IMG/VR virus record: IMGVR_UViG_3300025162_001855
Direction: 5' to 3' (one strand)
From: a virus
Taxonomy: Duplodnaviria; Heunggongvirae; Uroviricota; Caudoviricetes
Length of the DNA stretch: 64,000 nt
This document shows positions 901-17,809 of this stretch, piece by piece (position 1 is the stretch's first letter; each line of letters begins with the position of its first letter). Position numbers and translations under genes: made by a program. Below the pieces are notes generated by a model. It saw only the letters and a list, made by a program, of their open reading frames with translations, was not told where the DNA came from and ran no database searches.

Positions 901-977
901 TGGTGCCCACGGGCGGAGTCGAACCGCCAACAACGAGCTTCTGAGACTCGCTCCTCTGCCAATTGGGATACGGGGGC
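901..977 (-). tRNA. tRNA with anticodon CAG (a Leu anticodon) in a class-I short-variable-arm body
   Basis: Cloverleaf folded by hand: acceptor GCCCCCG/CGTGGGC, T-arm GGCGG-TTCGACT-CCGCC, anticodon arm CGAGT-CTCAGAA-GCTCG, 5-nt variable loop, A73 and encoded CCA. Confidence 0.5.
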
Positions 978-1257
978 TAAACTATTATGACCAAGGATGG
1001 CCGGCTGTTGGACTTGCTGTACCCGATTCTGTTGTAATTGTACCATCAACATATGCCGAATGCGTTCCAACAATGGTATGTAATGTGCGATATCCCGGGG
1101 TACCAACGGCTGCGCGTTCAGTAGTGGCCAATGCGAGCTTGTCGGTTCTACGCTTTAATCTAGTAGCAATCGGATCCACGTTTGGTCCCGACATTACTAC
1201 TTCTGTTGAAATACCATTTGCTGCCATGTTACTGTCCTCTAATGGTATTTAGCAATT

Positions 1258-1347
1258 TGGCGGAAGGTGTAGGATTTGAACCTACGTGGCTGTTACACCC
1301 ATCTCGTTTCGAGCGAGCGCCGATAGACCGGACTCTGGCAACCTTCC
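1258..1347 (-). tRNA. tRNA-Ser(CGA), class II
   Basis: Acceptor GGAAGGT/ACCTTCC, long variable arm, anticodon loop CTCGAAA, T-loop TTCAAAT, encoded CCA. Confidence 0.55.
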
Positions 1348-1355
1348 ATAAACTG

Positions 1356-1440
1356 TGGCGGAAGACATCGGAATCGAACCGACACCCCTAAGAGTGGACC
1401 ACCTTTCCAAGATGGTTTGTACCCAGTACACTATCTTCCT
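1356..1440 (-). tRNA. tRNA-Ser(GGA), class II
   Basis: Acceptor GGAAGAT/GTCTTCC, anticodon arm CCATC-TTGGAAA-GGTGG, long variable arm, T-loop TTCGATT, encoded CCA. Confidence 0.6.
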
Positions 1441-1742
1441 CGTATAAATCAATAAAGTTTTTTCCGTAAACGTTTACGACACTTCTATTTATGTGAATCA
1501 AGGTGCGCCAATAGACCACTCTGGCAACTCTCCATAAAACTGTTTCTACTAGGATTCGAACCTAGACATTGCGCCGATCAATATAATCGGTGCTAAGTAT
1601 ACCAATTCCTCACGTTATGCAAACATAGAAACAAAAATAAGCCCGTGTTTCGCCGGCTGTCTACAGCCACCACTTGGGAGGATCACGGTATCCTATTCTT
1701 CAGATTGTCCTTTTACTTGCGGCTGTTGCCCCACAAGGGATT

Positions 1743-1830
1743 TGGCGGAAGGTGTAGGATTCGAACCCACGTGCCCCTAAGGACCATCTCGGTTCAAGCG
1801 AGCGCCATTTGACCTCTCTGGCAACCTTCC
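1743..1830 (-). tRNA. tRNA-Ser(TGA), class II
   Basis: Acceptor GGAAGGT/ACCTTCC, anticodon loop CTTGAAC, long variable arm, T-loop TTCGAAT, encoded CCA. Confidence 0.55.
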
Positions 1831-1834
1831 AAAA

Positions 1835-2302
1835 TCATAAATTTTCTCTCTTTAATTTATCAATATACCAACCCACTCTAGTTGAACGTAATGTAGTTGT
1901 GTCGTTATTGTAATTGTATCTCAAATCCGGTTGTAACTTCTGCAAATTAAGAAAGTACACACCATTTGGATCAAATTCGGGATCATTAAATGCAATGACC
2001 ACATGAGTATTATGCTTTGCAGCGATATTCATATAGCTCGTATAGAATTGAAGATCAAATCCAAACGATCGTTTCCCTTTATATTCATAAGCCTTTCGTA
2101 CCTTGGCATCCACAAAGAAAAAGGTTTTGGAACTTCGATTATATAGTTCGAAATCCGGATATTGATCCCCGTCTACGCGGCACTTGTCCGATGTGTCTTT
2201 AATAATCCATGCTTGGCCCAAAGTCATATCAAGCCATGTGTGTAGCTTCTTTTCAAATGCTTTACCAATGGCATTACTAGTATCGAAACTTTTATAGCTC
2301 AT
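1835..2302 (-). CDS. PD-(D/E)xK nuclease-like protein
   Basis: ORF track; D...VDAKVRK arrangement resembles a D-(D/E)xK catalytic core. Confidence 0.35.
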   Translation of the reverse strand: MSYKSFDTSNAIGKAFEKKLHTWLDMTLGQAWIIKDTSDKCRVDGDQYPDFELYNRSSKTFFFVDAKVRKAYEYKGKRSFGFDLQFYTSYMNIAAKHNTHVVIAFNDPEFDPNGVYFLNLQKLQPDLRYNYNNDTTTLRSTRVGWYIDKLKRENL

Positions 2303-2721
2303 AAAACATTCCGTGTCATCTCGGCTAACACCCTATAGTTATTCGGATGAATACCATCTTCGGTTAATATGGATTTTGGAATATCAATTACGTTGTCATC
2401 ATTCTTTTTAGCAATCGCAAGAACAATCTTTCTTTGCTGTGGACGCAATACCTTATTGGGCAATATCCAAATAACTGAATCGGCATCAATGCTATTGCGC
2501 AGTGCGGCAATTTCAAGTTCGGAATTTACGCCCGGATAATCATTTGTCCCAATCGAAATAATTACTCTATCGGCTTGACGGAGTCTAAATCCGAAATGTT
2601 GCATATATGTTTGGCTATTAATGCCGACTTCTGCTTCGACTGTGCATTCGGGCCTATATTGGCCAATACCAACAGCAATCGAATCACCGAGAATGTAACA
2701 AGCAATCATCTCCAATAACAT
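2299..2721 (-). CDS. SGNH/GDSL-family hydrolase
   Basis: N-terminal ILGDSIA (GDS block), GTND block and DGIHPN (DxxH) in the translation. Confidence 0.5.
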   Translation of the reverse strand: MLLEMIACYILGDSIAVGIGQYRPECTVEAEVGINSQTYMQHFGFRLRQADRVIISIGTNDYPGVNSELEIAALRNSIDADSVIWILPNKVLRPQQRKIVLAIAKKNDDNVIDIPKSILTEDGIHPNNYRVLAEMTRNVL

Positions 2722-2737
2722 ATATCACCTTTAAAGT

Positions 2738-2812
2738 TGGCTGGGTGGCTAGGAGTCGAACCTAGATTAACGGAGTCAGAGTCCGTTGTCCTACCAATTA
2801 GACGACCTCCCA
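2738..2812 (-). tRNA. tRNA-Gln(CTG)
   Basis: U1:A72 acceptor TGGGAGG/CCACCCA, anticodon arm ACGGA-CTCTGAC-TCCGT, T-loop TTCGACT, G73 and encoded CCA; E. coli tRNA-Gln-like. Confidence 0.6.
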
Positions 2813-3027
2813 ATAAATCAAAACAGGATTCGCTTTTTACTTACAATAGTATTTAATTGCTGCAAGAATCCTTAACCTTTATAGCCGGTGTAGTTACATT
2901 AAGGACATCACTCCTCTACCGCTACTCCGTTAAACCAATAATCGAGCCTACACACAAATTGATGTGATTTGTGTCTCGGCTCAATCCAGTTCCCGCTTCC
3001 TGCTACGGTCTGCTCCTACTATATTCT

Positions 3028-3501
3028 TTATTGAGCCTTGACGTACTTATTGTACGCAGCAACCCAATCTGTTGCAATCTCTTTTTGTGCCGTTGCCATA
3101 TCAATTTGGCCGGCGCAAATCATTTTGTGCAACTTGTTTTCCAATGCATCCTTTAAATGGGCATTGTATGGTGTCGTTGTGTACGACTGGGGCCATAAGT
3201 TCTTAATGTCATTCATGCCCCCAAGTTCAAGCGAGATTAAATGGTCAATCTCGAACTTATCGGCACTCGGATCAATGTTGTATTCTTTGAACGCAGCCTT
3301 CTTAAGTGAATCGGGCACGTTGCGTACCTTGTTACCCTGTGCATCCTTTCCGGCTGTGTAGTTTGGAACGCAAACTATTTCCTTTGTGGCCGCTGGGTTA
3401 ACCATCCCCGGTGTCAACGTTGGATCCGGCTTCTGTGGGAAGTCTACTGCCATCGCCGGCAAAGTTACGAATAATAATACTAAGGTGTATAAGTGTTTCA
3501 T
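3028..3501 (-). CDS. HNH-motif nuclease-like protein with an N-terminal signal peptide
   Basis: Signal peptide MKHLYTLVLLFVTLPAMA; HNH-like block EIDHLISLELGGMNDIKN. Confidence 0.4.
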   Translation of the reverse strand: MKHLYTLVLLFVTLPAMAVDFPQKPDPTLTPGMVNPAATKEIVCVPNYTAGKDAQGNKVRNVPDSLKKAAFKEYNIDPSADKFEIDHLISLELGGMNDIKNLWPQSYTTTPYNAHLKDALENKLHKMICAGQIDMATAQKEIATDWVAAYNKYVKAQ

Positions 3502-3505
3502 GCAC

Positions 3506-3781
3506 TTATTTACCCGATAAATGGAAAAAGCCCTGCATCGAACCTTGCGTATCGTTCATCAGCTCGGACATGTTCACATGACTCAATCCCCACAAGGCAA
3601 AGATTAATCCGAGTAGCCAAGGAACAAACTTGGATATGTCCTTGCCATATGTCTCGGATATCTTTCGAACCATAAGGGAAATGAGATACCCGGCGCAAAA
3701 CGAAACCAGCACAACATTCCATAAATGCTGCGCCGAGATCAAGTCAAATATCTTCTGGGTTGGGTCGATAGTATGTGCCAT
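3506..3781 (-). CDS. small membrane protein
   Basis: ORF track; two hydrophobic helices. Confidence 0.35.
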   Translation of the reverse strand: MAHTIDPTQKIFDLISAQHLWNVVLVSFCAGYLISLMVRKISETYGKDISKFVPWLLGLIFALWGLSHVNMSELMNDTQGSMQGFFHLSGK

Positions 3782-3819
3782 ATAATCCTTTATGTGGACT
3801 ATACTTATTTATCCAAATT

Positions 3820-3895
3820 TGGTGCCCATTGTCGGATTCGAACTGACGACCTTTGACTTACGAAGTCACTGCTCTACCAACTGAGCTAAACGGGC
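3820..3895 (-). tRNA. tRNA-Thr(CGT)
   Basis: Acceptor GCCCGTT/AATGGGC, D-arm GCTC-AGTTGGTA-GAGC, anticodon loop TTCGTAA, T-loop TTCGAAT, encoded CCA. Confidence 0.6.
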
Positions 3896-3996
3896 ATAAG
3901 GCACATTCCACTTCCTGTCCGCGAGATAAACTCCATCCTAGGGCGGAATACTTAGTGCGTTGCCCTAGGTCGATGTTACGGCAGGTCTCTACCAAC

Positions 3997-4302
3997 CTAT
4001 TTCTTAAACCAATCCTCTGGTTTGTCTTCTTTGAACCACGAGTCAATTTGGTCTTTTGTTGGAGTTGATATTTCAACATCCTCAAAAGCCGGCTTCTCTA
4101 ATATAATGGTATCGATATAGTCACCAACATCACGTGGATGAAAATCGACTATGTCGTGCTCCATTGGAGAGAACTCAGTTACTTTGTTTCCGTATCGCTT
4201 GTCATATGGATTAAAGCCACCCCAAGTTGACTTGTGCGGAAGTCTCTTGGGGAATGCTTTTGGTTTTTCGGGCTTGCTAAACAACCTATCGAATAGTCCC
4301 AT
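3997..4302 (-). CDS. hypothetical protein
   Basis: ORF track; start moved to the internal Met so the gene sits between tRNA-Thr and tRNA-Gly. Confidence 0.35.
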   Translation of the reverse strand: MGLFDRLFSKPEKPKAFPKRLPHKSTWGGFNPYDKRYGNKVTEFSPMEHDIVDFHPRDVGDYIDTIILEKPAFEDVEISTPTKDQIDSWFKEDKPEDWFKK

Positions 4303-4317
4303 ATGGCACCTATAAAT

Positions 4318-4392
4318 TGGAGCGGAAGACGAGATTCGAACTCGCGACATTCAGGTTGGCAACTTGACGCTCTACCACTGAGCTACATCCGC
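4318..4392 (-). tRNA. tRNA-Gly(GCC)
   Basis: Acceptor GCGGATG/CTTCCGC, anticodon loop TTGCCAA, T-loop TTCGAAT, encoded CCA. Confidence 0.6.
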
Positions 4393-4402
4393 ATTACTAC
4401 TA

Positions 4403-5515
4403 TTACTTATGACCTCTACCATGTCTAACTGGTGGATCTCGGAACATACGTGTCCATATCTTACAAGATTCATCGTTATACTCAATCAATCCATTTACTG
4501 CAATTTGGGCCTTACGCCAGAAACGATAGCCCCACATCACATCGCACATCTTATCACAAATCTCATCGGAATTTGTAACCTCGTCAACTGTAAAATGTTC
4601 GGGTAACCATTCTACTTCTTTTGAAGTAACCACCGGAACACCCTGTGAGACAAAATCGGCTGTTACAATGTTGAAACTTTCCGTAAAGCTACACTGTAAT
4701 CCAATATCCATTGAGTTGGCCAAATCTAAGAAATCATCGTGATTCAACCAACCATGTTCCACAAGTTCGTACTGTTTTGGATCTAAATTATCAAATACGC
4801 CGTGTATTGCCTTAAGGACATTGTTACCGGCATCTTCTAATCGGGCTACATTGATATGGAAGCGAAGTTTTTTCTTACGCTTATCGGCAAACTTAATTGC
4901 TGCAATGGCCTGCACAAGATGATTCTTAAGTGGGCGTATTGCCCCAAAGCACCCAACGTTTACAAAATCACCAACTAGTGTACGGGGAGAAATTTCTTTC
5001 TGTATCTTATAGAAGTTTGGTAAGAATATCACCTTCTCATTGGCCACTGCCTCACCATATGCCGCAGTTGCGATACTCAGTGTATCTGTGAATGTTTGAC
5101 GGCTGTTTGGAGCCAGGAACACATTTGGATATGTGAGATATTTCATGCTCCAATCCATTGCAATCCCCTCGTTGGCCAGGAATGGGAATTCACTGTGATT
5201 ACGAACAATCCATTTAACCCCGGGATGCAGTTTGTTAAGAATTGTGAACTTCTCGGGCACAACCCAAAATGCTTCGATGATAACGTGGGTTGGTTTGTAT
5301 GCTGTAACTTCTCTATCAATACAATTGTTATCGACTACTTCAACTAATTTGGCTTCTATGTCATTATCATTGAGCATGTCAACAACAAACATTGCCGAAT
5401 TGCGAAGCCCAGAGGACAAGCAATAGGTAAAATTTGGCTTGTACTCTTTATGAAGAGCACCATATTCGTCGGACGTCATCGAGCGACGCTTTAATATAAA
5501 GAGCATTCTTGTCAT
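4403..5515 (-). CDS. glycosyltransferase, GT-B fold (group-1-like)
   Basis: C-terminal GT-B-like region in a 370-aa ORF; start trimmed to Met-35 to clear the adjacent tRNA. Confidence 0.45.
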   Translation of the reverse strand: MTRMLFILKRRSMTSDEYGALHKEYKPNFTYCLSSGLRNSAMFVVDMLNDNDIEAKLVEVVDNNCIDREVTAYKPTHVIIEAFWVVPEKFTILNKLHPGVKWIVRNHSEFPFLANEGIAMDWSMKYLTYPNVFLAPNSRQTFTDTLSIATAAYGEAVANEKVIFLPNFYKIQKEISPRTLVGDFVNVGCFGAIRPLKNHLVQAIAAIKFADKRKKKLRFHINVARLEDAGNNVLKAIHGVFDNLDPKQYELVEHGWLNHDDFLDLANSMDIGLQCSFTESFNIVTADFVSQGVPVVTSKEVEWLPEHFTVDEVTNSDEICDKMCDVMWGYRFWRKAQIAVNGLIEYNDESCKIWTRMFRDPPVRHGRGHK

Positions 5516-5581
5516 TGGTGGATTCCTAGTTGGCTGTGTATTTATACACAACCTGCAATACCATACAAGAAACACAATAAT

Positions 5582-5660
5582 TGGCGCGCCAGAGAGGACT
5601 CGAACCTCCAACCTCACCGGTAGGAACGGTGAGCTCTATCCTATATTGAGCTACTGACGC
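5582..5660 (-). tRNA. tRNA-Arg(CCT)
   Basis: Acceptor GCGTCAG/CTGGCGC, anticodon arm CACCG-TTCCTAC-CGGTG, T-loop TTCGAGT, G73 and encoded CCA. Confidence 0.6.
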
Positions 5661-5678
5661 ATGGTGCGATTGGTGGGA

Positions 5679-5763
5679 TGGTGCGCTTGGCGAGACTCGA
5701 ACTCGCATGTCTTTCGACGATAGCACCTCAAGCTATTGGGTCTACCAACTCCCCCACAAGCGC
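5679..5763 (-). tRNA. tRNA-Leu(GAG), class II
   Basis: Acceptor GCGCTTG/CAAGCGC, anticodon arm ATAGC-TTGAGGT-GCTAT, 13-nt variable arm, T-loop TTCGAGT, A73 and encoded CCA. Confidence 0.6.
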
Positions 5764-6393
5764 GTTATCCCAAACCTTTATATCTTCTAATAGTTGTTCC
5801 AATGTTATTTCACACTTCTTAGTCTTTCTAGCGTTATCGCGGTGACTAATGAATCTACAATTTGCCGGGTGAGAAATGATCTTAGGGTCGATGTTGTTCT
5901 TATACCCATAGTCTATAGATATACGATGATCTCGTACTACTCCATCTAAGTTCTTTCCTCTCGAGTACATTCCAGACTGTTTCAATAAATCGAACCCGGG
6001 TATGCGTTCAATACAACCCGCTAGGTTGAACTCACATTGTTCTCGATATATGATCTTGTGTAGTCGCTCTTCATTTGTTGTACGCCGCCTACCAGTAACC
6101 GTGCTAGCCTGCTTTGCTATGCTCGGGTGTGTGCTTTTGGTGTGCCCCTTGGCCCACGCCATTTTGTCTTTGGTATCTTGCGACAGGCTCTTATATCTAT
6201 CGGAATAGTCTCTACCACAGGTTTTCAGTCCGTTACTGTTTTTTGCTCTTATTGCCGGGCAACTATTCGGAAATGGCTTACACAAAAACTTGCCAGATCG
6301 ATTTTGATATCTGGCAACAGTACCGCATCCGCACTCACATAGCGCGTCGGTTACTACTTCTTTTGCTGGTCTTGGTCCACTTTTGTTTGGCAT
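5728..6393 (-). CDS. HNH homing-type endonuclease
   Basis: HNH block DHRISIDYGYKNN...HPANCRFISHRDNARK plus Cys-rich N-terminus; the 3' end overlaps the 5' end of tRNA-Leu(GAG). Confidence 0.55.
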   Translation of the reverse strand: MPNKSGPRPAKEVVTDALCECGCGTVARYQNRSGKFLCKPFPNSCPAIRAKNSNGLKTCGRDYSDRYKSLSQDTKDKMAWAKGHTKSTHPSIAKQASTVTGRRRTTNEERLHKIIYREQCEFNLAGCIERIPGFDLLKQSGMYSRGKNLDGVVRDHRISIDYGYKNNIDPKIISHPANCRFISHRDNARKTKKCEITLEQLLEDIKVWDNALVGELVDPIA

Positions 6394-6595
6394 ACACGTA
6401 TTTATGCGCCATTACAAATTTCTACCAATTCCGCCACAATCGCAAAAACTATTGATTCAAGATGTATGGCACCAATTTGATCTTGGATATGATCCATATG
6501 CCAACTACTATCACCGCAACAAAACATGCTGTGGCTTTTAACATTACTTTTTCTTCTTCGTGCAACTTCATAATAACTCCAATGAACAGTATTTA

Positions 6596-6670
6596 TTGGT
6601 GCCCCCACCGAGAATCGAACTCAGATTTCTGACTTACCAAGTCAATGTACTAACCGTTGTACTATAGGGG
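6596..6670 (-). tRNA. tRNA-Thr(GGT)
   Basis: Acceptor GCCCCTA/TGGGGGC, anticodon arm TTGAC-TTGGTAA-GTCAG, T-loop TTCGATT, encoded CCA. Confidence 0.6.
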
Positions 6671-6673
6671 CAA

Positions 6674-6749
6674 ATGGTGCGCGATGAAGGGATCGAACCT
6701 TCGACATCTACAATGTCAATGTAGCGCTCATACCGCTGAGCTAATCGCG
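6674..6749 (-). tRNA. tRNA-Val(GAC)
   Basis: Acceptor GCGCGAT/ATCGCGC, anticodon arm CTACA-TTGACAT-TGTAG, T-loop TTCGATC, encoded CCA. Confidence 0.65.
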
Positions 6750-6899
6750 CAAATAAGGCGCGGGGGGTGGCTCATCACCACTCTTCATAAAAACAGTTGC
6801 AACTGTTTCAGATGGGCGGCTTTTTCAGGACCGTTGCATACCCCACCAGACTACTTACGCCCTTTGCAAATTACGGCGACTCCCCCGCATATAGAAACT

Positions 6900-6975
6900 T
6901 GGTCAAGGTAAGGAGACTCGAACTCCTAGCCTCGTCGCCCCGAACGACGCGCTCTACCAATTGAGCTATACCCTG
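6900..6975 (-). tRNA. tRNA-Pro(CGG)
   Basis: Acceptor CAGGGTA/TACCTTG, anticodon arm CGTCG-TTCGGGG-CGACG, T-loop TTCGAGT, encoded CCA. Confidence 0.6.
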
Positions 6976-7503
6976 TTAATAAAAAAATGTCGATACAATA
7001 TGTATCACTCCGGCCATAAGCAACATAGCCAAGAACGGCAAATGAAACATACGCCAATGTTCAAACCATTGATCAAATTTAGCAAGATGTTTTCTGTTGT
7101 ATAGGTATCGACCAATAAGGCCGCTAATAACAGTCACCCACATACTGCACATGGCTATTCTTGCATTGCCCGCCCCAAGATGAAATCCGGTGTGATACAG
7201 GATAGCAATGGGACCAAATATACCAAGTAATGGATGCCACCAAAACCAATTGTACTCCGATCGAGGAAAGGCACGGGGCCAACGCTTCTTGGCCGAATAA
7301 AGGAATAGCAAGGCTAGCATACTTGCCCCGGTAATCCCGAGCGCATATCCTAGTCCATTTTTTGGAGTAATGTATTGGTCCGGATGATAAGCATAGCCGG
7401 CAATAATCAATGCCGCCGCAATTATACCTACCGCTCTTGGTCCGGCTTTACCCAATTCATAACTCCTCTTTAAAGCTGGTGCTGGTGTTTGGAATCGAAC
7501 CAA
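6976..7503 (-). CDS. integral membrane protein (multi-pass)
   Basis: ORF track; about five hydrophobic helices. Confidence 0.4.
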   Translation of the reverse strand: MVRFQTPAPALKRSYELGKAGPRAVGIIAAALIIAGYAYHPDQYITPKNGLGYALGITGASMLALLFLYSAKKRWPRAFPRSEYNWFWWHPLLGIFGPIAILYHTGFHLGAGNARIAMCSMWVTVISGLIGRYLYNRKHLAKFDQWFEHWRMFHLPFLAMLLMAGVIHIVSTFFY

Positions 7504-7552
7504 ATATCACTCGCTTATCAGGCGAGGCCCGCAGCCGTCTGGACCCACCAGC
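7478..7552 (-). tRNA. tRNA-Ile(GAT)
   Basis: Acceptor GCTGGTG/CACCAGC, anticodon arm CTCGC-CTGATAA-GCGAG, T-loop TTCGATT, encoded CCA. Confidence 0.6.
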
Positions 7553-8163: not shown

Positions 8164-8224
8164 ATGTATTATTTAGCCTGGACAGCTCAAAAGTGTGCTC
8201 TACCACTGAGCTATAGGCCAATAA

Positions 8225-8881
8225 TCAAAATATCTGTGTAAACTCTGTCGGGGTGATAAGTCCCAAGTTTGTCTTGCGATCCTTACGCATCTCTCCAAAC
8301 TCAAAGAATGGATTGGTATGCGGAATAGTCCCATCACTTGGCATTCCATATGCCAAGATACCCACGCCATGGTCGGTATCAACTGTGACAATCTTCTTGT
8401 TGAGCAATGTGCGGAGATAGTAAATTGCCTTCCAGCAACTACCGTTGAGCGCACCAATTGCCTCCTTACCACCCTCGTTATAGAACCAATCCATGTCGTC
8501 ATTGGCCATAATCCAATCGGGCGGATTACAATCATGGAACACAATAAATCCATTATCGGACAAATGTGCCATCGAGTTGGCTGCATCCTTAAGTGTTTGG
8601 CCGGCTGTATGTAGTCCATCAATGAACACAACATCCCATTTATGGTCCACGGGAAAGCGAGTTTGGCCTTGCTCAAGGATCTTAAAGAATTCATCGGATG
8701 TCAGTTGGAATTCAACTGGATTACTCGGATTCAACAATCCCGGATCGACACCAACCTTGTGTGCCGCTGCAATATTATCAAAGCATTCGCGGGGATCATC
8801 AACACCAATCTCCAGATACTTACAACCCTGTGGAAAGTATTTTGAAATTAGGTAATTGAGAATGTTAATCCGGTTCATCAT
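8225..8881 (-). CDS. class I SAM-dependent methyltransferase (TylF/MycF-like)
   Basis: YLEIGV motif I-like and VVFIDGLH block in the translation. Confidence 0.5.
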   Translation of the reverse strand: MMNRINILNYLISKYFPQGCKYLEIGVDDPRECFDNIAAAHKVGVDPGLLNPSNPVEFQLTSDEFFKILEQGQTRFPVDHKWDVVFIDGLHTAGQTLKDAANSMAHLSDNGFIVFHDCNPPDWIMANDDMDWFYNEGGKEAIGALNGSCWKAIYYLRTLLNKKIVTVDTDHGVGILAYGMPSDGTIPHTNPFFEFGEMRKDRKTNLGLITPTEFTQIF

Positions 8882-8920
8882 AACAGAGTATCCTTGTAGT
8901 TCAGTATTTACCGTAAAAAG

Positions 8921-8996
8921 TGGTACCCCGTGTCAGACTCGAACTGACATAATTCTGCGTGTAAAGCAGATGCTTGAACCTCTCAGCTACCGGGGC
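8921..8996 (-). tRNA. tRNA-Val(TAC)
   Basis: Anticodon arm TCTGC-TTTACAC-GCAGA, T-arm GTCAG-TTCGAGT-CTGAC, A73 and encoded CCA. Confidence 0.55.
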
Positions 8997-9001
8997 AAAT
9001 T

Positions 9002-9076
9002 TGGCAGACCCTACGGGTATCGATCCCGTTACTCTACCTTGAAAGGGTAGTGATATAGCCAGTTATCTAAGGGTCC
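9002..9076 (-). tRNA. tRNA-Glu(TTC)
   Basis: Acceptor GGACCCT/AGGGTCT, anticodon arm CTACC-CTTTCAA-GGTAG, atypical T-loop ATCGATA, G73 and encoded CCA. Confidence 0.55.
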
Positions 9077-9085
9077 AAAACCGTT

Positions 9086-9168
9086 TGGTGCTGGCAGTAA
9101 GACTCGAACTTACGTAGGTTTCCCGACGGCTTACAAAACCGTTGCAATTGCCACTATGCGATGCCAGC
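9086..9168 (-). tRNA. tRNA-Thr(TGT), 83 nt with an extended variable region
   Basis: Acceptor GCTGGCA/TGCCAGC, anticodon arm ACGGT-TTTGTAA-GCCGT, T-arm GTAAG-TTCGAGT-CTTAC, encoded CCA. Confidence 0.45.
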
Positions 9169-9280
9169 GTTGATCTATTTATACTGTATGGTGGTGACGG
9201 CTGGATTCGAACCAGCGGGTTGCAACCTTATGAGGGTTGTGTGATGGGCCTCTCTGCCAAGTGGGCATTGAAAAACTTAA

Positions 9281-9532
9281 TTATCTATTTGGATCGTATT
9301 CAATAGAATTTAGAACAGGACCAAATGTTATCTGTGCTGTTGTGGCTTTAGATTTTCCACTTTGCTTTAGTAGCATCAGCACTTCTTTAATACACCATAC
9401 TAGATCTTCATGTCTGCTTTTAAATACAAACACAATCGTGCCGCTCTTTGTTTCAACAATAGAACCGATAGTTTCGGCTGCGGAAGTATTTTGTGATTTG
9501 CTTGATCGTAAGCGTCGTAATAATTCAGACAT
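9281..9532 (-). CDS. small hypothetical protein
   Basis: ORF track; start moved to the internal Met because the annotated 5' end overlaps tRNA-Met. Confidence 0.3.
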   Translation of the reverse strand: MSELLRRLRSSKSQNTSAAETIGSIVETKSGTIVFVFKSRHEDLVWCIKEVLMLLKQSGKSKATTAQITFGPVLNSIEYDPNR

Positions 9533-9566
9533 TGTATAAATCCCTAATTGTCTACTATTTATACCT

Positions 9567-9644
9567 TGGTGGCTGAGGTGAGGATCGAACTCACGCCATT
9601 CTACTTTATGAAAGTAGCGCACATACCTTCTATGCTACTCAGCC
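9567..9644 (-). tRNA. tRNA-Met(CAT)
   Basis: Acceptor GGCTGAG/CTCAGCC, anticodon arm CTACT-TTCATAA-AGTAG, T-arm GTGAG-TTCGATC-CTCAC, A73 and encoded CCA. Confidence 0.6.
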
Positions 9645-9780
9645 GAAATGAATTTGAACAGGGTTGGAGTCGAACCAACATTAGTTAGCCGTACATCAAC
9701 ACGATGACACAGCGGTTTTGGATACAGTTGATGCTGCCCGTAACCCCCGGCTTTGCCATTTTGCCTACCTGAACAAAACT

Positions 9781-9855
9781 TGGTGGGTCCGGAGAATTTC
9801 GAAATCTCGACTTGCCGCTTAAGAGGCGGCTACTCTGCCTCTGAGTTACGAACCC
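9781..9855 (-). tRNA. tRNA-Lys(CTT)
   Basis: Acceptor GGGTTCG/CGGACCC, anticodon arm GCCGC-CTCTTAA-GCGGC, encoded CCA. Confidence 0.55.
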
Positions 9856-10486
9856 AATTAATCTTATCACTATTAAATTTGTCTTGAAGATTATATTTTT
9901 CAACCACAGCCTTCAATCGACTGTATCCAGCTCCCCGAGTCTGCAATTTCAATAACCGTAATGCTCCCGATATTGATGTTGCCTGAAGTAGTGCATCGTA
10001 GTATCGTTGTTCGGTAATTTCTTTTTGCTTTTGTCGTTTATCTCGTTTTGGACGGATTCTACGTGCGCATCTGCCCACTAGCCAACCTTGTGGTTGTTCT
10101 CCGCATTTAAACTTTCCTGCCTTACTAGACACCGGATCATAATACCATGGCTTGCCAAAACTTCCATTTTTGTCACCAACCCGCTGTTTGGCTACTAGTT
10201 GATGCTTCTTCCTGATCCAACCATATATTTTGTTGTTCGATCGCTGTCCATTGTGCAACCCGATCATCTGTATAGCAGCCCAAACTAATCCGTTATGTTT
10301 AGGATACATTTTCATCAATAGCTGATGAGCAACATAGTGCTCTTCGGCAGTTAAGTTTACTAAGTTTTCTGGCAAATCTGTCCCACCGAGGCAACGTGGA
10401 ACAATATGGTGCCGTTCGATATAACCAGTTATCTTTCTACCTTTAGCCCGAGCTATTAGTAGTTCATAGTGTTGTGTATAGTTCAT
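9830..10486 (-). CDS. HNH homing-type endonuclease
   Basis: HNH block HHIVPRCLGGTDLPENLVNLTAEEHYVAH; 3' end overlaps tRNA-Lys(CTT). Confidence 0.6.
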   Translation of the reverse strand: MNYTQHYELLIARAKGRKITGYIERHHIVPRCLGGTDLPENLVNLTAEEHYVAHQLLMKMYPKHNGLVWAAIQMIGLHNGQRSNNKIYGWIRKKHQLVAKQRVGDKNGSFGKPWYYDPVSSKAGKFKCGEQPQGWLVGRCARRIRPKRDKRQKQKEITEQRYYDALLQATSISGALRLLKLQTRGAGYSRLKAVVEKYNLQDKFNSDKINWVRNSEAE

Positions 10487-10529
10487 AACTATATTTATCC
10501 GCGAACACTATATTCTTAGATTAAGAAGT

Positions 10530-10603
10530 TGGCACCCCGGGAGAGATTCGAACTCCCATTAACGGTTTTGGAGACCGTAGTCCTGCCATTGAACGACCGG
10601 GGT
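10530..10603 (-). tRNA. tRNA-Trp(CCA)
   Basis: Acceptor ACCCCGG/CCGGGGT, anticodon arm ACGGT-CTCCAAA-ACCGT, T-loop TTCGAAT, G73 and encoded CCA. Confidence 0.65.
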
Positions 10604-10609
10604 ATAAAA

Positions 10610-11581
10610 CTATTTGGCTTTACGAGATGGGAACTGGTTGAACAGTTTGCCATACTTGGAACGATTAAGTATCATCTGTGAGTTCCAAACTTGCTGTTCA
10701 CCATCATTTGTGGTCACTGTAATAGTGGACTTGGCCCACGGGTCACCACTCATTGTTGCCTTAGTAACAGGCTTACCAATCTTCTCGACCATCTTGTGAA
10801 CCCAAGCCATATATGCATCATGTGAATCTTGCTTGGCGTTGTCAATGTACCGCTTACGGAGCTCTGGGCTTTCCTTGCGGTGTGCATCCTTGCCGTCGGC
10901 CGATACTGTAATGCTTTGAAAAAACGAACGCTTGTGTTCCTTTCTGCGATAATCTTCGGTGCGGTCCGTGCTCTTTGCTCTTGGGGCAATAACATCTAGA
11001 TCCCATCCAGCAGCAGACATCATACCCATCCAGGTCTTGAACTGGCTTTTTGACAATTCTTCGGCACGCGCAACATATTCGTCAATGTGCTTTGTGAGTA
11101 CGTTGACTAATGTTGATGCATCGGAAAACTTCTTGGCAGTTGCTGTTGCCGCAACGGCCTTGGCCTGGGCTCTCTTAACCGAAGTCTTAACAACCTTGTC
11201 CTTTAAGGATTCGGTAATGTCCAGGTACGGCTTGAGTTGCTGATATGCATCGATGAACGCCTTGATCACCGGACTGTCCTTGGCCGCAACCTTCTTGAGC
11301 TTATTCGGTAGGCTCTTAAATGCCTGCGTACCAAAACCCAGAGCCCATACAAAATCTTGTACGTCTTGTGGGAGGTCCTTGTACTTGCCGGCGTAAGTAT
11401 ATTCGGCAAGAATGCTCTCGCGTACTGCATCACATAAACGCGATACTAAACTCTTCCATTCTGCAAACTTTGGGAGAATAATCTCACCAGCTGCCTCGGC
11501 ATCCTTCATGTCATTATACATGGCTTGGGTACGCTCTAAATAGCGTTGGGCTTCGGGTTTAAGTAGATCTGTGATGTTCAT
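10610..11581 (-). CDS. hypothetical protein (324 aa after start correction)
   Basis: ORF track; the annotated N-terminus overlaps tRNA-Arg(TCG), so the start is moved to MNITDLL at 11581. Confidence 0.45.
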   Translation of the reverse strand: MNITDLLKPEAQRYLERTQAMYNDMKDAEAAGEIILPKFAEWKSLVSRLCDAVRESILAEYTYAGKYKDLPQDVQDFVWALGFGTQAFKSLPNKLKKVAAKDSPVIKAFIDAYQQLKPYLDITESLKDKVVKTSVKRAQAKAVAATATAKKFSDASTLVNVLTKHIDEYVARAEELSKSQFKTWMGMMSAAGWDLDVIAPRAKSTDRTEDYRRKEHKRSFFQSITVSADGKDAHRKESPELRKRYIDNAKQDSHDAYMAWVHKMVEKIGKPVTKATMSGDPWAKSTITVTTNDGEQQVWNSQMILNRSKYGKLFNQFPSRKAK

Positions 11582-11620
11582 AGTATAGTATTTATACGCC
11601 CTGCTATTACAGATGTCAAT

Positions 11621-11697
11621 TGGCGCCCTCGGAGAGACTCGAACTCCCGACTTCTTCGTTCGAAGCGAAGCACTCTGATCCACTGAGTTACGAGGGC
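11621..11697 (-). tRNA. tRNA-Arg(TCG)
   Basis: Acceptor GCCCTCG/CGAGGGC, anticodon arm CTTCG-CTTCGAA-CGAAG, T-loop TTCGAGT, G73 and encoded CCA. Confidence 0.65.
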
Positions 11698-11769
11698 AAA
11701 AACTCTCGGGGTGCTGTATTCACCCCTTCCCGCAATAGACAATGATACAGTATCTATTGCGGAGTACTC

Positions 11770-11846
11770 TGGCGCGCCCGGAGAGATTCGAACTCCCAAC
11801 CCCAAGCTTCGTAGGCTTGTGCTCTATCCAGTTGAGCTACGGGCGC
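11770..11846 (-). tRNA. tRNA-Arg(ACG)
   Basis: Acceptor GCGCCCG/CGGGCGC, anticodon arm CAAGC-CTACGAA-GCTTG, T-loop TTCGAAT, G73 and encoded CCA. Confidence 0.65.
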
Positions 11847-11858
11847 AAAACTAAAATC

Positions 11859-11933
11859 TGGTGGGCCCACTAGGATTTGAACCTAGACTCGACGGTTTAT
11901 GAAACCGCTGCTTTGACCCTTAAGCTATAGGCC
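11859..11933 (-). tRNA. tRNA-Met(CAT), second CAT isoacceptor
   Basis: Acceptor GGGCCTA/TGGGCCC, anticodon arm GCGGT-TTCATAA-ACCGT, T-loop TTCAAAT, A73 and encoded CCA. Confidence 0.6.
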
Positions 11934-12548
11934 CGAAAATGTTCCTTTGCGAATCGCGTAAATATCTTGTTCGCGTATTATACGAAGTTTTCCAGGAAAA
12001 TGCAACCACTTGGCGCGATCTCTGTCGGTTTCATATCCCTTCACTTCAACGTACAGGTCCATAGATTCAATATAAAAATCTGGAAAGTATGTTCTGGTAC
12101 CATTCCATTCATATTCGAATCCGGTAGTTGCCCGATGTGGTTGTAATCCAACATTCTGGGCCCATCTATAAAATTCTAATTCCCACTTGCCCTGAAACTT
12201 TATACCATCTTCGATGATTTGTTTCGTTCTACCTCTATTAGAAGAAGTATACGCATCTGGATTGTTAGCAACCGCCAACTTCATCGATTCTGATGTTTTC
12301 TTTCTACTCTCCGCAGAACGTGCAAGTGTACCATTTTTTATTTTGGTAGCTAGTATCTTCTGTGTTGTTTCTTTTGCAACGACAGGCTTTGTCAATCCAT
12401 CGCGTGCCGCTTTTGTAAACTGGTTTGCACCTTTCTTACCGAGCATACCGTTTCGGTAGACTCTATTCTGGTTTTTGGGACAGCATCGTTCATGATTCTT
12501 GAGAGAATTTACGTTCTTACATAACCGATCACAGTATACACATTCCAT
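11925..12548 (-). CDS. C2HC zinc-finger plus PD-(D/E)xK homing-type endonuclease (paralog 2 of 3)
   Basis: N-terminal CVYCDRLCKNVNSLKNHERCC; C-terminal FPDFYIESMDLYVEVKG (D...EVK); 3' end overlaps tRNA-Met. Confidence 0.55.
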   Translation of the reverse strand: MECVYCDRLCKNVNSLKNHERCCPKNQNRVYRNGMLGKKGANQFTKAARDGLTKPVVAKETTQKILATKIKNGTLARSAESRKKTSESMKLAVANNPDAYTSSNRGRTKQIIEDGIKFQGKWELEFYRWAQNVGLQPHRATTGFEYEWNGTRTYFPDFYIESMDLYVEVKGYETDRDRAKWLHFPGKLRIIREQDIYAIRKGTFSGL

Positions 12549-12586
12549 ACTGTATTTAGCACAGAGTTCCCTGCTCTACCATAATC

Positions 12587-13372
12587 TCATTTAGGCTCAA
12601 ACTTCTTGAAGCAATCCAAAAATTCTTGTGGTAGCAGTCCCGGCGGTGTATCGATAAAGGTCATATCGTCCCTACCATACAAATCCCCGCCCGATGCCAT
12701 TGTTGATTTGATGTGCTCAATGTTTGTGAACTCGGGCTTATTGAACTCCTGATCGGCAAAGTTAAAAATCTTGTTTTGAACTTGCTCGGGTGTCCCCCAA
12801 TAACTTAGATGCCACCCACCTTGGTGTATGCACATGAAATCGAATCGATTAATCCTAAACCAACTTGGACCCATCTCCTTGAATCGACCAACTGTGGTCA
12901 ATACCGGGCCATGCCAAATGGTTGTCATTGCTCTTTTGAGATTGAAGTAAAACAAAATCTGACCAAGCAGGATGTTCTTGTATCCAACAACTAGTTCTTT
13001 AGCGAACTGTTGATTGAATTTAGTCCTATCCGGAATCTCATCGACATCACTAATCATAATGTATGCGTCATCGGGTGCAACATGAAGCACTGTTGCAATT
13101 TGATCGCGTTGAGCATTGGCAAGGTCCGCTGGGAATGATGCCTTGGTAGCATCGAACTTTGATAGGTCAACCACATATGGAATATAGATAATCTTGTTTA
13201 GGTATTTGCCAAACCGATCCCAATGTTGAGGCAGGTTAAATGGTTTCTTCTTACCACTGTGCGTTGTATCAGCTTCGACAATAATGAAATAGTCAACATG
13301 CTCGGCCAAATATTCTAAACGCCCCTCCAATAGGTCATATTCATCAAAAAAGATAAAGCTATCAATAATCAC
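12587..13372 (-). CDS. GT17-like glycosyltransferase (paralog 1)
   Basis: N-terminal MIIDSFIFFDEYDLLEGRLEYL and a WHLSYWG block; paralogous to 13369-14172 and 57416-58213. Confidence 0.55.
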   Translation of the reverse strand: MIIDSFIFFDEYDLLEGRLEYLAEHVDYFIIVEADTTHSGKKKPFNLPQHWDRFGKYLNKIIYIPYVVDLSKFDATKASFPADLANAQRDQIATVLHVAPDDAYIMISDVDEIPDRTKFNQQFAKELVVGYKNILLGQILFYFNLKRAMTTIWHGPVLTTVGRFKEMGPSWFRINRFDFMCIHQGGWHLSYWGTPEQVQNKIFNFADQEFNKPEFTNIEHIKSTMASGGDLYGRDDMTFIDTPPGLLPQEFLDCFKKFEPK

Positions 13373-14172
13373 AGTGTCACCTCAAATTTACCAAAGCATT
13401 CTAAAAAATCTTTGGGTAGAGTAGTAGCATCCACGCGGACGAATTTCAAGTCTCGTCCATATAAATCTTTGCCTTCGGATACAACCTGTTTGATGTAATC
13501 GATATCGGTGTATCGGGCATTGTTATATTCTTGATGGGCCGAATTAATTATCTTGGCTTGGATGAATGCCGGATCCCCCCAATAGCTTAGGTGCCAACCC
13601 GAATCCAACACCCCGCGTAATTTAAACCTGTTATCACGAAACCATTGTGCGCCATTGGACTGTACATATTTGTTGAATGTTATTACAGTGCCGCGCCATT
13701 GATCAAGCTCCTTATGCTGGAGATTGAAATAGAACATGTCTTGAAAAGATACCACAGCCCCAACATCGGGCGTCAAGTGCTTCTTGGTAATGTCAATTAA
13801 ATTGCGAGATGGAATCTCGTCTAAGTCCGAGATAACAACTAGTGCATCATCGGGATAATCCTTTAGAGCTTCCGTGATTGCACCACGTTGGTCATTTTCA
13901 AAGCGCCAGTATCCACTACTGTAATCAAACTCTGTCAATTTCTTATCGAAGTCATACTTGGTTCGATCTGGAGTAAATTTAACGTATTGTATCTTATCAC
14001 TGTATGCAACAAGGCGTTCTTGATTTTCTAAATAGTTAAACGGTTTTGTCTTACCACTGAAGGTAAGGTTGGATTCGACAATGACAAACTTGTCAATCCT
14101 ATCATACAAATATTGCAATCTGCCTTCTAGGATATCTAGTTCATTGGCAAACATAAAGCAATCAATGATCAT
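13369..14172 (-). CDS. GT17-like glycosyltransferase (paralog 2, tandem)
   Basis: N-terminal MIIDCFMFANELDILEGRLQYL and a WHLSYWG block; overlaps its upstream paralog in an ATGA start/stop arrangement. Confidence 0.55.
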   Translation of the reverse strand: MIIDCFMFANELDILEGRLQYLYDRIDKFVIVESNLTFSGKTKPFNYLENQERLVAYSDKIQYVKFTPDRTKYDFDKKLTEFDYSSGYWRFENDQRGAITEALKDYPDDALVVISDLDEIPSRNLIDITKKHLTPDVGAVVSFQDMFYFNLQHKELDQWRGTVITFNKYVQSNGAQWFRDNRFKLRGVLDSGWHLSYWGDPAFIQAKIINSAHQEYNNARYTDIDYIKQVVSEGKDLYGRDLKFVRVDATTLPKDFLECFGKFEVTL

Positions 14173-14225
14173 GCGCAGTCCTTGTAAACTATTAGTTATC
14201 GTCGCTTTACAGCATTACCGATAAT

Positions 14226-14302
14226 TGGCGCCCCCGGAGAGACTCGAACTCCCGACCTGACGGGTAGAAACCGTATGCTCTAATCCACTGAGCTACGAGG
14301 GC
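14226..14302 (-). tRNA. tRNA-Arg(TCT)
   Basis: Acceptor GCCCTCG/CGGGGGC, anticodon arm TACGG-TTTCTAC-CCGTC, T-loop TTCGAGT, G73 and encoded CCA. Confidence 0.6.
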
Positions 14303-14307
14303 AAGAT

Positions 14308-14382
14308 TGGGGTGACTAGAGGGAATCGAACCCTCATTGAAGGAATCACAATCCTTGATCCTACCATTGAACGATAGCCACC
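14308..14382 (-). tRNA. tRNA-His(GTG) with an encoded G-1
   Basis: Extra 5' G pairing with C73, acceptor GTGGCTA/TAGTCAC, anticodon arm AAGGA-TTGTGAT-TCCTT, T-loop TTCGATT, encoded CCA. Confidence 0.6.
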
Positions 14383-14468
14383 ATCGAAATAAACAGGATC
14401 GTTTCCACTCCCGAAGAAGTGTCTTTGGGTTTGAACCAACATCTATTTATACAAAAATGATTCTAGAG

Positions 14469-14541
14469 CGCTCCTACGGGAACTCGAATCCCGATTCTCA
14501 CCTTGAGAGGGTGGTATCCTAACCTGTTAGATGATAGGAGC
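14469..14541 (-). tRNA. tRNA-Glu(CTC); CCA not encoded
   Basis: Acceptor GCTCCTA/TAGGAGC, T-arm CGGGA-TTCGAGT-TCCCG, anticodon loop CTCTCAA with one stem mismatch, 3' end G then CTC. Confidence 0.5.
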
Positions 14542-14551
14542 ATTTATAAAA

Positions 14552-14628
14552 TGGTGCTCGTGATAGGAGTCGAACCTACAACATCATGATCCTAAATCAT
14601 GCGCGTCTGCCAGTTGCGCCACACGAGC
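14552..14628 (-). tRNA. tRNA with anticodon TAG (a Leu anticodon) in a class-I body
   Basis: Acceptor GCTCGTG/CACGAGC, anticodon arm CATGA-TTTAGGA-TCATG, 6-nt variable loop, T-loop TTCGACT, A73 and encoded CCA. Confidence 0.45.
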
Positions 14629-14633
14629 AAAGT

Positions 14634-14707
14634 TGGAGCGGAATACGAGACTCGAACTCGTTTAGTCAGCTTGGAAGGCTGAAGCACAACCCATATGCCA
14701 ATTCCGC
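14634..14707 (-). tRNA. tRNA-Gly(TCC)
   Basis: Acceptor GCGGAAT/ATTCCGC, anticodon arm TCAGC-CTTCCAA-GCTGA, T-arm ACGAG-TTCGAGT-CTCGT, encoded CCA. Confidence 0.6.
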
Positions 14708-14778
14708 GTAATCTAAAAACAGGATGCCTTTTGTTTCATTTCGATTGAAATTTTTAATTTGCAGCACGCATCCTAAAC

Positions 14779-15237
14779 CTAATTCTTTTTCAGAGCTTCC
14801 GAAATTTTCCGTTTGTGTTCTTTGGATTTCGGTTTACCCTTGTTACCTGCTGCATTCGTGTTGCCCACCATCTTACGTGAATTCATACGACATGCTGCGT
14901 CATAACCATGTTTGGCTACCATATGGTACCATGCACCCTTATGGACCCCACTCTCTACTGCATCGATACCGATATTCTCTTTGTCGGTACCCCAATACAA
15001 GTGGCGTGGATTAGAACACTTTGCGTTATGACAGGCATGGCACAATATAATTCTACCGGATGGTATTGTTGTATTGAGATACTGAGCCAACACACCTTTA
15101 TGGTTTGTAGAGTTACCACCACGCTCACAACAGGTTTCATCTAATGCCAAATGACTACGTCGTTCTTCACGACTTCGTTTAATAAATTCAAGTATGTTTT
15201 CCATACTTCTATTTATACAAGTAAACACACTAGACAC
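14779..15237 (-). CDS. HNH endonuclease
   Basis: HNH-like block CHACHNAKCSNPRHLYWGTDKEN in the translation. Confidence 0.5.
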   Translation of the reverse strand: MSSVFTCINRSMENILEFIKRSREERRSHLALDETCCERGGNSTNHKGVLAQYLNTTIPSGRIILCHACHNAKCSNPRHLYWGTDKENIGIDAVESGVHKGAWYHMVAKHGYDAACRMNSRKMVGNTNAAGNKGKPKSKEHKRKISEALKKN

Positions 15238-15258
15238 AATTATCTAGTGTGTTTAAGT

Positions 15259-15336
15259 TGGTACGGAAGAAGGGATTCGAACCCATACTGTAGAGATTTT
15301 AAGTCTCTTGTCTCCTGCCAATTGGACTACTTCCGC
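15259..15336 (-). tRNA. tRNA with anticodon TAA (a Leu anticodon) in a class-I body
   Basis: Acceptor GCGGAAG/CTTCCGT, anticodon arm AGAGA-CTTAAAA-TCTCT (perfect stem), 5-nt variable loop ACAGT, T-loop TTCGAAT, A73 and encoded CCA. Confidence 0.5.
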
Positions 15337-16423: not shown

Positions 16424-16519
16424 CGATAAATTGGTCCTCGCCCACGGGAATGATCCGTGCCGTTGCAGCCAGTCCAGCCACTCTCGCAGGTTTATAAAAC
16501 CTACCCGCACACCAGTGCT
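16424..16519 (-). other. atypical tRNA-like element (about 96 nt)
   Basis: 7-bp terminal stem CCTCGTC/GGCGAGG followed by ACCA, T-arm-like CACGG-ATCATTC-CCGTG and hairpin TAGGT-TTTATAA-ACCTG, but a roughly 27-nt extra insert; not a canonical cloverleaf. Confidence 0.25.
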
Positions 16520-16527
16520 GACGAGGA

Positions 16528-17733: not shown

Positions 17734-17809
17734 TGGTGGAGGTGACAAGGATCGAACTTGCGACATTTTGGTTGCAAACCAAACGCTCTACCAACTGAGC
17801 TACACCCCC
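17734..17809 (-). tRNA. tRNA-Ala(TGC)
   Basis: Acceptor GGGGGTG/CACCTCC with the G3:U70 pair, anticodon arm TTTGG-TTTGCAA-CCAAA, T-loop TTCGATC, encoded CCA. Confidence 0.65.

Follow-up and report, generated by a model that had tools for sequence, protein, structure and literature searches.

Type I leucine tRNAs in a phage tRNA array: three predicted members of a short-armed family common to phages and actinobacteria

A viral DNA of 64,000 nucleotides (nt) (IMG/VR record IMGVR_UViG_3300025162_001855, Caudoviricetes; the whole of this stretch is called the window here) carries an array of transfer RNA (tRNA) genes, three of which combine the leucine anticodons CAG, UAG and UAA with a body that lacks the long variable arm of class II tRNA. 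By sequence and predicted fold the three genes belong to a widespread and conserved family of short-armed tRNA-Leu in phages and actinobacteria. It is very likely that they are functional elongator tRNA-Leu of type I, charged by the host's leucyl-tRNA synthetase (LeuRS) and decoding leucine codons. Type I tRNA-Leu has already been published for bacteria (PMC6614811), and the genes described here add members to that family. A sequence-only reading of the window had pointed to three tRNAs with short variable loops and these anticodons, and both ARAGORN and the Rfam tRNA model RF00005 find them exactly where that reading placed them, together with the two canonical class II tRNA-Leu, GAG and CAA, that it had also reported (Table 1).

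Each of the three genes scores above the gathering threshold of RF00005 (29 bits) and covers positions 1–71 of the 71 in the model, that is, a full-length cloverleaf. ARAGORN and the covariance-model alignment of Rfam agree in placing CAG, UAG and UAA at the anticodon position, with isolated mismatches only. The possibility had been raised of alternative folds with different anticodons; other folds were checked for all three tRNAs, and none gives a different anticodon.

All three are 7/5 cloverleaves, with an acceptor stem of 7 base pairs (bp) and a T stem of 5 bp. They share a D stem of 3 bp, an unpaired C13·A22, an A15:U48 pair, A73 and an encoded CCA, as well as U8 and a standard UUCGANU T loop. 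The D loop runs A14-A15-Y-U-G18-G19-C20-A20a-G21 (AAYUGGCAG) in every case. The sequence-only reading gave the variable loops as 5–6 nt; they are indeed short, but parsing gives 5 nt in each (TTGTT in Leu(CAG), ATGTT in Leu(UAG) and ACAGT in Leu(UAA)), and the same parse confirms its assignment of A73 to all three. Leu(CAG) has A9, the D loop AATTGGCAG and A37, with a C5·U68 mismatch in the acceptor stem. Leu(UAG), whose D arm is the closest of the three to that of a long-arm tRNA-Leu, has G9, the D loop AACTGGCAG and G37. Leu(UAA) has A9, the D loop AATTGGCAGG and A37, together with G1·U72 and a U50·U64 mismatch in the T stem.

The two long-arm tRNAs of the window provide the comparison. Leu(GAG) and Leu(CAA) each have a variable arm of 13 nt, G9 and A73; the former has a G13·A22 apposition, the latter G13 and an A15:U48 pair. 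The register of the D loop is the same in the short and the long-arm Leu tRNAs, while position 13 is G in the long-arm and C in the short molecules. If class II is taken to require a variable arm of more than 10 nt that forms a stem-loop, then Leu(GAG) and Leu(CAA) fall within it and the three short tRNAs fall outside. The short Leu tRNAs are set apart by their variable arm, and not by the anticodon loop. The idea, offered in the sequence-only reading, of tRNAs adapted to evade anticodon nucleases has no direct support here.

The elements that remain are those by which leucine tRNAs are recognized. The identity set of E. coli LeuRS comprises A73, A14, the A15-U48 Levitt pair, G18G19, A20a and the tertiary pairs that join the D loop to the T loop (PMC9976931, PMC6614811). 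Bacterial LeuRS can dispense with both the anticodon and the long arm, and variants of tRNA-Leu from which the arm has been removed stay active (PMC9976931, PMC6614811). The whole of this E. coli-type set is present in all three short Leu tRNAs of the window.

The anticodons point in the same direction. The window has five Leu anticodons, one copy of each, and the long-arm GAG and CAA tRNAs complete the leucine isoacceptor set of the phage. The codons CUG, CUA and UUA make up 41.5% of the 1041 Leu codons in the open reading frames (ORFs) of the window. This division of labour is found more widely: across 27 loci having both forms, the same anticodon recurs in a short and a long Leu tRNA only 3 times, where 9.6 ± 2.3 such cases would be expected (P ~0.003). 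Because the two forms so rarely share an anticodon, they behave as one isoacceptor set.

From these elements we propose the following course of events. The three short Leu tRNAs would be transcribed with the rest of the minus-strand array, their CCA already encoded. Host LeuRS would then add leucine by way of A73 and the elbow of the D and T loops (A14, A15:U48, G18G19 and A20a), all of which are retained. In translation the charged tRNAs would read CUG and CUA, perhaps along with other CUN codons, and UUA/UUG. Together with the long-arm GAG and CAA tRNAs, the phage would thereby obtain one complete and non-redundant leucine set.

How general is this architecture? The family was sought with a degenerate pattern in which nothing was fixed but TGGCAG, the T loop and a portion of the anticodon loop. 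It matches at least 120 contigs from viruses and at least 120 from genomes, and the family counts given here come from the matches listed. In the 120 viral loci listed ARAGORN finds at least 174 Leu tRNAs of 80 nt or less, with all Leu anticodons represented, against 24 long ones. The matches at genome loci are short Leu tRNAs too, mostly UAA, and about 68 of the 80 genome records listed are from Actinomycetota. Since 98 of the 120 genome loci listed hold a single tRNA within 8 kb, the short Leu tRNA of Actinomycetota looks like an ordinary chromosomal gene. A second viral sample (loci L245–L363) was drawn with an unrelated generic D-arm motif and is thus not selected on Leu features. Of its 49 Leu tRNAs, 14 (29%) are short, compared with one of 34 Ser tRNAs.

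The search pattern leaves C13·A22, A15:U48 and A73 free, and yet each is found in ~90% of the family, counted over 166 short Leu tRNAs from viruses and 136 from genomes. Among 643 other class I tRNAs of these loci, by comparison, C13·A22 has a frequency of just 2%. The variable loop is 5 nt long in 142 of the 166 viral members. We aligned 104 non-redundant members of the family. U8, A14, G19, A20a and A73 do not vary among them; 103 members leave 13·22 unpaired, and 103 have A:U at 15:48. Cells of the cloverleaf are paired in 93.8% of cases, against 36–47% when the partners are slid, and there are 705 double-sided changes; the observed covariation was reached by none of 500 shuffles. Compensatory covariation is strong in all four stems, and the fold of the family is under purifying selection.

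The three genes of the window fit this family closely. Against a profile built from the family without the window sequences, they score 51.8 (CAG), 52.8 (UAG) and 53.6 bits (UAA). Next in the window comes the long-arm Leu(CAA), with 28.7 bits, and none of the non-Leu tRNAs exceeds 19.8 bits. Comparison with homologous phage tRNAs had been suggested along with the initial prediction, and it leads to a single conserved and covarying family. The suggestion that these might be Leu tRNAs of unusual architecture thereby fares well in its first part, for which the identity set, the covarying family, the leucylated precedent in Streptomyces coelicolor and the filling of three of five anticodon slots without duplication all speak; its second part has to be toned down, since phage tRNA arrays and Actinomycetota commonly show this architecture.

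The best characterized relative is the type I tRNA-Leu(CAA) of S. coelicolor, which is leucylated in vitro by its own LeuRS and also by human mitochondrial LeuRS, and whose deletion was not achieved (Fan et al., Nucleic Acids Res 2019, PMC6614811). Like the phage tRNAs it has A73 and a variable loop of 5 nt, a length that matters for its charging (PMC6614811). The chromosomal Leu(CAA) homologues of Streptomyces (loci L149 and L184) are members of the family with the same design of D arm, GCCC-AATTGGCAG(C)-AGGC with C13·A22, and their variable loop ACAGT is that of the Leu(UAA) in the window. There are differences. S. coelicolor is a high-GC actinobacterium with a single chromosomal CAA gene and a LeuRS that has a particular leucine-specific domain, while the phage, at 42–50% GC, has three isoacceptors (CAG, UAG and UAA). 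Moreover, S. coelicolor LeuRS is reported not to use A73 (PMC6614811). Type I tRNA-Leu has been called rare, and the Streptomyces enzyme the only prokaryotic LeuRS that leucylates both types of tRNA-Leu (PMC6614811). Within the family, S. coelicolor type I tRNA-Leu(CAA) is the one type of member for which leucylation is directly evidenced.

Among phages the closest parallel is Vibrio phage KVP40 (AY283928), where all three tRNA-Leu genes (-1, -2 and -3) are short, at 77–78 nt, and belong to the family. They share the invariant bases of the window, namely C13, A14, A15, G18G19, C20, A20a, G21, A22, U48 and A73. The region of KVP40 examined has short Leu tRNAs only, whereas the window has three short and two long. 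Homologues annotated as tRNA-Leu in GenBank occur in the cyanophages P-SSM7, S-SKS1, S-CREM1 and P-RSM6, and in phages of Pseudomonas, Enterococcus, Lactobacillus, Streptomyces, Gordonia and Rhodococcus. These and the KVP40 genes sit in tRNA arrays and are 75–92% identical to the tRNAs of the window; the annotated tRNA-Leu of Prochlorococcus phage P-SSM7, for example, is 91.5% identical to Leu(UAA) over 59 nt. In bacteria, mycobacterial tRNA clusters include a tRNA-Leu(UAG) with a short variable loop beside a normal long-arm isoacceptor elsewhere in the genome (PMC6582537); this is a chromosomal cluster in which the tRNA is mentioned in passing, and the likeness is one of description. The tRNA-Leu of animal mitochondria is likewise of type I without a long arm, and takes its identity from A73 and A14 (PMC9976931). 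However, mitochondrial tRNAs have degenerate, floppy cores and a LeuRS of their own, while those of the window have the canonical bacterial elbow (G18G19 and UUCGANU).

Complete short-Leu sets are also found in the tRNA arrays of some cellular genomes. An array on a Cylindrospermum chromosome has five short Leu tRNAs (UAG, GAG, CAG, UAA and CAA). A metagenome-assembled genome of Planctomycetota has three short Leu tRNAs in tandem, and one of Lachnospiraceae has them in an array. The arrays of these cellular records are at L195 (2790–3266), L123 (3550–3794) and L190 (1345–1662). Such arrays may be integrated mobile tRNA arrays.

A number of observations weigh against the assignment of the three genes as working tRNA-Leu. 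No LeuRS or other aminoacyl-tRNA synthetase is encoded in the window. A negative result from S. coelicolor bears on the host enzyme: its type I tRNA-Leu(CAA) is not leucylated by E. coli LeuRS (PMC6614811), and for this reason not every bacterial LeuRS can be assumed to be competent. We considered phage T5 as an E. coli example of a type I substrate, but its tRNA-Leu(UAG) is the long form, at 85 nt, and T5 therefore says nothing on E. coli LeuRS and type I substrates. Leu(CAG) has the lowest Rfam score of the three, an acceptor-stem mismatch and A37. Leu tRNAs that read CUN codons usually have G37, the site of m1G37. Among the viral CAG members of the short family A37 is commoner than G37 (8 against 4).

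The body of the tRNAs was also judged by a naive-Bayes isotype classifier that emulates the isotype models of tRNAscan-SE, with anticodon and variable region masked; its leave-one-out accuracy is 72%, and its Leu class was trained on long-arm tRNAs only. Leu(UAG) is assigned to Leu by 12 bits. The other two give near-ties, a point against, and we take the classifier as support for the UAG tRNA only: Thr –88.5, Leu –88.8 and Arg –89.2 for CAG, and Glu –84.4, Gly –85.9 and Leu –87.3 for UAA. Across all short Leu tRNAs the top choices are scattered over many isotypes, which we read as the mark of a family that is a class of its own and not as a sign of another identity. Pfam scans of the ORFs in and around the array reveal no synthetase or tRNA-specific enzyme that would explain special charging. 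On balance we infer that the three short tRNAs are expressed, leucylated by host LeuRS and used in translation.

The length of the variable arm is itself subject to change. L242 is related to this phage, an ORF of the array being 63% identical at the protein level; it has a full long-arm Leu(UAG) of 84 nt (7204–7287) and a Leu(UAA) (8330–8408) that is intermediate, with a variable loop of 7 nt and a class II-like G13. The short Leu tRNAs fall into two types, one with A9/C13 that is shared with Actinomycetota, and one with G9/G13 that resembles a truncated class II tRNA. In the window CAG and UAA are of the A9/C13 type, and UAG is G9/C13. The coexistence of the G9/G13 and A9/C13 short types suggests that the long arm was lost more than once, which would fit a synthetase that does not need it.

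The converse departure occurs in the same array, where the Thr(UGU), Asn(GUU), Met(CAU) and Ile(UAU) tRNAs, normally of class I, have expanded variable regions (Table 1). Elsewhere, in the viral loci sampled with the generic D-arm motif, several isotypes usually of class I (Asn, His, Thr, Gln, Ile and others) are longer than 80 nt, and 3 of 15 Tyr tRNAs are 80 nt or less. Variable-arm length seems to be generally loose in phage tRNA arrays.

Selection could also have acted on the arm, and this would supplement the account of the three genes as working tRNA-Leu by giving it a selective reason, without replacing it. Arm loss in phage Leu tRNAs would then be a recurrent counter-defence against toxins that select class II tRNAs by the long arm, with nucleotidyltransferases of the MenT3/AbiEii type and nucleases of the Schlafen type as candidates. 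LeuRS is the class II-tRNA synthetase able to tolerate loss of the arm, so that phages could strip it, and leucine decoding would go on while the Leu tRNAs of the host were inactivated. We consider this improbable, although there are several points in its favour. The disparity between short Leu and short Ser tRNAs in the unselected viral sample (~29% against 1 of 34) agrees with it, as do the differences between related phages at the same anticodon, UAG being short in the window and 84 nt in L242, and the existence of class II-like G9/G13 short Leu tRNAs beside the A9/C13 type, with the repeated loss that this suggests. According to a 2026 preprint, AbiEii likely prefers long-arm class II tRNAs, like MenT3. 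The window also has RNA-repair-type genes, among them two RNA ligases and a Ro/TROVE-like protein. Against this, no toxin known from these data targets tRNA-Leu via the arm in any host of such phages, and the accessible portion of a paper on bacterial Schlafen defence places cleavage in the anticodon arm and states no preference for a long arm. Actinomycetota keep the same architecture on the chromosome, where evasion is no obvious explanation, and this phage retains two long-arm Leu tRNAs. Furthermore, the expanded variable regions of the Thr, Asn, Met and Ile tRNAs in the array fit a relaxed constraint on arm length equally well.

It is far less probable that the three are mischarging or recoding tRNAs, carrying a Leu anticodon but another amino acid, in the manner of the serine-inserting allo-tRNAs. 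There is a precedent, in that Leu-anticodon tRNAs of serine identity and non-standard body occur in bacteria, some of them in phage tRNA clusters (Mukai et al. 2017, PMC5389517), and the body classifier is ambiguous for two of the three short tRNAs. Yet the allo-tRNAs are 8/4 or 9/3 structures with a long arm (PMC5389517), whereas those of the window are 7/5 with 5-nt loops and the identity elements of leucine. The long arm is needed by seryl-tRNA synthetase (PMC9976931), and the short Leu tRNAs are without it. The determinant of alanyl-tRNA synthetase, G3:U70, occurs in none of the ~300 short Leu tRNAs in the matches listed. The alternatives offered by the classifier indicate no single isotype. 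The synthetases of these isotypes read anticodon bases that are absent from the three short Leu tRNAs. The cognate codons account for so large a share of the leucine codons of the phage (41.5%) that mistranslation would strike its own proteome, and the way in which the anticodons of short Leu tRNAs and those of long ones complement one another is a further argument against mischarging. The sequence-only reading had offered mischarging or decoy tRNAs among its explanations; this finds no foothold in tRNAs that have no G3:U70, no long arm and no 8/4 or 9/3 stem arrangement, and whose A35 excludes most of the synthetases that read the anticodon.

We considered whether the short tRNAs could have arisen out of tRNA-Gln through a substitution at position 35 (CUG to CAG, and UUG to UAG), since phage Gln tRNAs have an AAUUGGYAR D loop in common with them. 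This origin was rejected: the Gln tRNAs have U1-A72, a 4-bp D stem and mostly a base other than A73, and score 14.7–15.4 bits on the short-Leu profile.

Least credible of all is that the genes are non-functional pseudogenes, class II Leu genes decaying after deletion of the arm: the C5·U68 mismatch of CAG and the U50·U64 mismatch of UAA would agree with decay, as would minimum-free-energy z-scores that are unremarkable (–0.8 to –1.8) but, as usual for tRNAs, uninformative, whereas covariation in four stems, invariant bases at the tertiary interactions, the encoded CCA, Rfam scores of 47–58 bits, homologues kept in many cultured phages and an array in which ARAGORN finds, for each of the three anticodons, no second functional copy all argue that the genes are maintained.

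On this evidence tRNA-Leu is a fitting annotation for the three genes, and the phage may be said to have a complete leucine set. Short tRNA-Leu genes are already annotated, simply as tRNA-Leu, in KVP40 and many other phage records; in the literature searched, no paper was found that treats type I tRNA-Leu as a general trait of phages, gives its frequency in them or discusses the architecture of these phage genes, which is not proof that it is undescribed. The wider pattern in phages is of more interest than this window. A design that has been called rare is present in about a quarter to a third of the phage Leu tRNAs sampled, and the same design recurs in phages of Vibrio, Pseudomonas, cyanobacteria, Enterococcus and Lactobacillus, in many Actinomycetota chromosomes, and in the tRNA arrays of Lachnospiraceae and Planctomycetota genomes and of one cyanobacterium. 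This raises two testable questions. Do the ordinary LeuRS enzymes of bacteria charge type I tRNA-Leu, and what makes phages favour it so often?

Table 1. Positions in the window of the leucine tRNAs, of class I isotypes with expanded variable regions, and of RNA-repair-type genes.
Feature	Position	Strand	Remarks
Type I (short-arm) tRNA-Leu(CAG)	901–977	minus	77 nt including CCA; ARAGORN; Rfam 47.6 bits
Type I (short-arm) tRNA-Leu(UAG)	14552–14628	minus	77 nt including CCA; ARAGORN; Rfam 58.4 bits
Type I (short-arm) tRNA-Leu(UAA)	15259–15336	minus	78 nt including CCA; ARAGORN; Rfam 56.7 bits
Long-arm (class II) tRNA-Leu(GAG)	5679–5763	minus	85 nt; ARAGORN; Rfam 53.3 bits
Long-arm (class II) tRNA-Leu(CAA)	21985–22069	minus	85 nt; ARAGORN; Rfam 57.3 bits
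tRNA-Thr(UGU)	9086–9168	minus	83 nt; 12-nt variable region
tRNA-Asn(GUU)	19378–19466	minus	89 nt; 3-bp variable stem
tRNA-Met(CAU)	17337–17422	minus	86 nt; U1·U72 mismatch, variable stem, TGCAAAT T loop; ARAGORN only, below Rfam gathering score
tRNA-Ile(UAU)	16432–16526	minus	95 nt; long variable arm, ATCATTC T loop; ARAGORN only, below Rfam gathering score
RNA-repair-type genes	24096–25148, 29142–30029, 31991–32749, 50616–51701	minus	downstream of array

The window comes from a large, phage-like genome. According to ARAGORN its array comprises 42 tRNA genes between 901 and 22069, every one on the minus strand, and 35 of these are confirmed above the gathering score of RF00005. With 39 anticodons the tRNA complement of the phage is near-complete, and all 20 amino acids are covered. 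A megablast search of the 22.5-kb array against GenBank phages gave no relative, the only match being one of 81% to a single tRNA. The RNA-repair-type genes encode two RNA ligases, one with a PHA02142 OB domain and one like T4 Rnl1, as well as a metallophosphoesterase and an RNA-binding protein of Ro/TROVE-like type (DUF2828/DUF7788), a repertoire associated with the repair or handling of damaged tRNA. The Ro/TROVE-like protein matches those of phages of many hosts at 44–48% identity, and no host is inferred from it. Enzymes of nicotinamide adenine dinucleotide (NAD) salvage and glycosyltransferases are also encoded in the window.

Several other features of the array may be recorded. tRNA-Glu(CUC) (14468–14541, minus strand) is the sole gene of the 42 without a terminal CCA. 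tRNA-Ala(UGC) (17578–17657) and tRNA-Asp(GUC) (19292–19371), both on the minus strand, are 80 nt each and have G8 in place of U8, variable loops of 9 nt and D arms that are closely alike; both fall below the Rfam gathering score. A second Ala(UGC), of canonical form, lies at 17734–17809. Matches of ~10 bits to the short-Leu profile occur outside the predicted tRNAs at 9196–9264, 853–872 and 9659–9684 on the minus strand, and could be tRNA remnants or chance. In L243, a distant relative with 45% identity in an array ORF, a tRNA with the anticodon CUA (9412–9485) is labelled 'Pyl' by ARAGORN; a tRNA of the amber-suppressor type hints at stop-codon recoding in that lineage. Lastly, homing-endonuclease-like ORFs are found among the tRNA genes of the window at 9856–10486, 14779–15237 and 19471–20100 on the minus strand, identified by weak HNH matches and by a DUF559/Vsr-like domain with a C2H2 zinc finger. 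One of them separates the Leu(UAG)/Gly pair from Leu(UAA), and the tRNA region of T5 likewise has homing-endonuclease-like ORFs interspersed among its tRNA genes.

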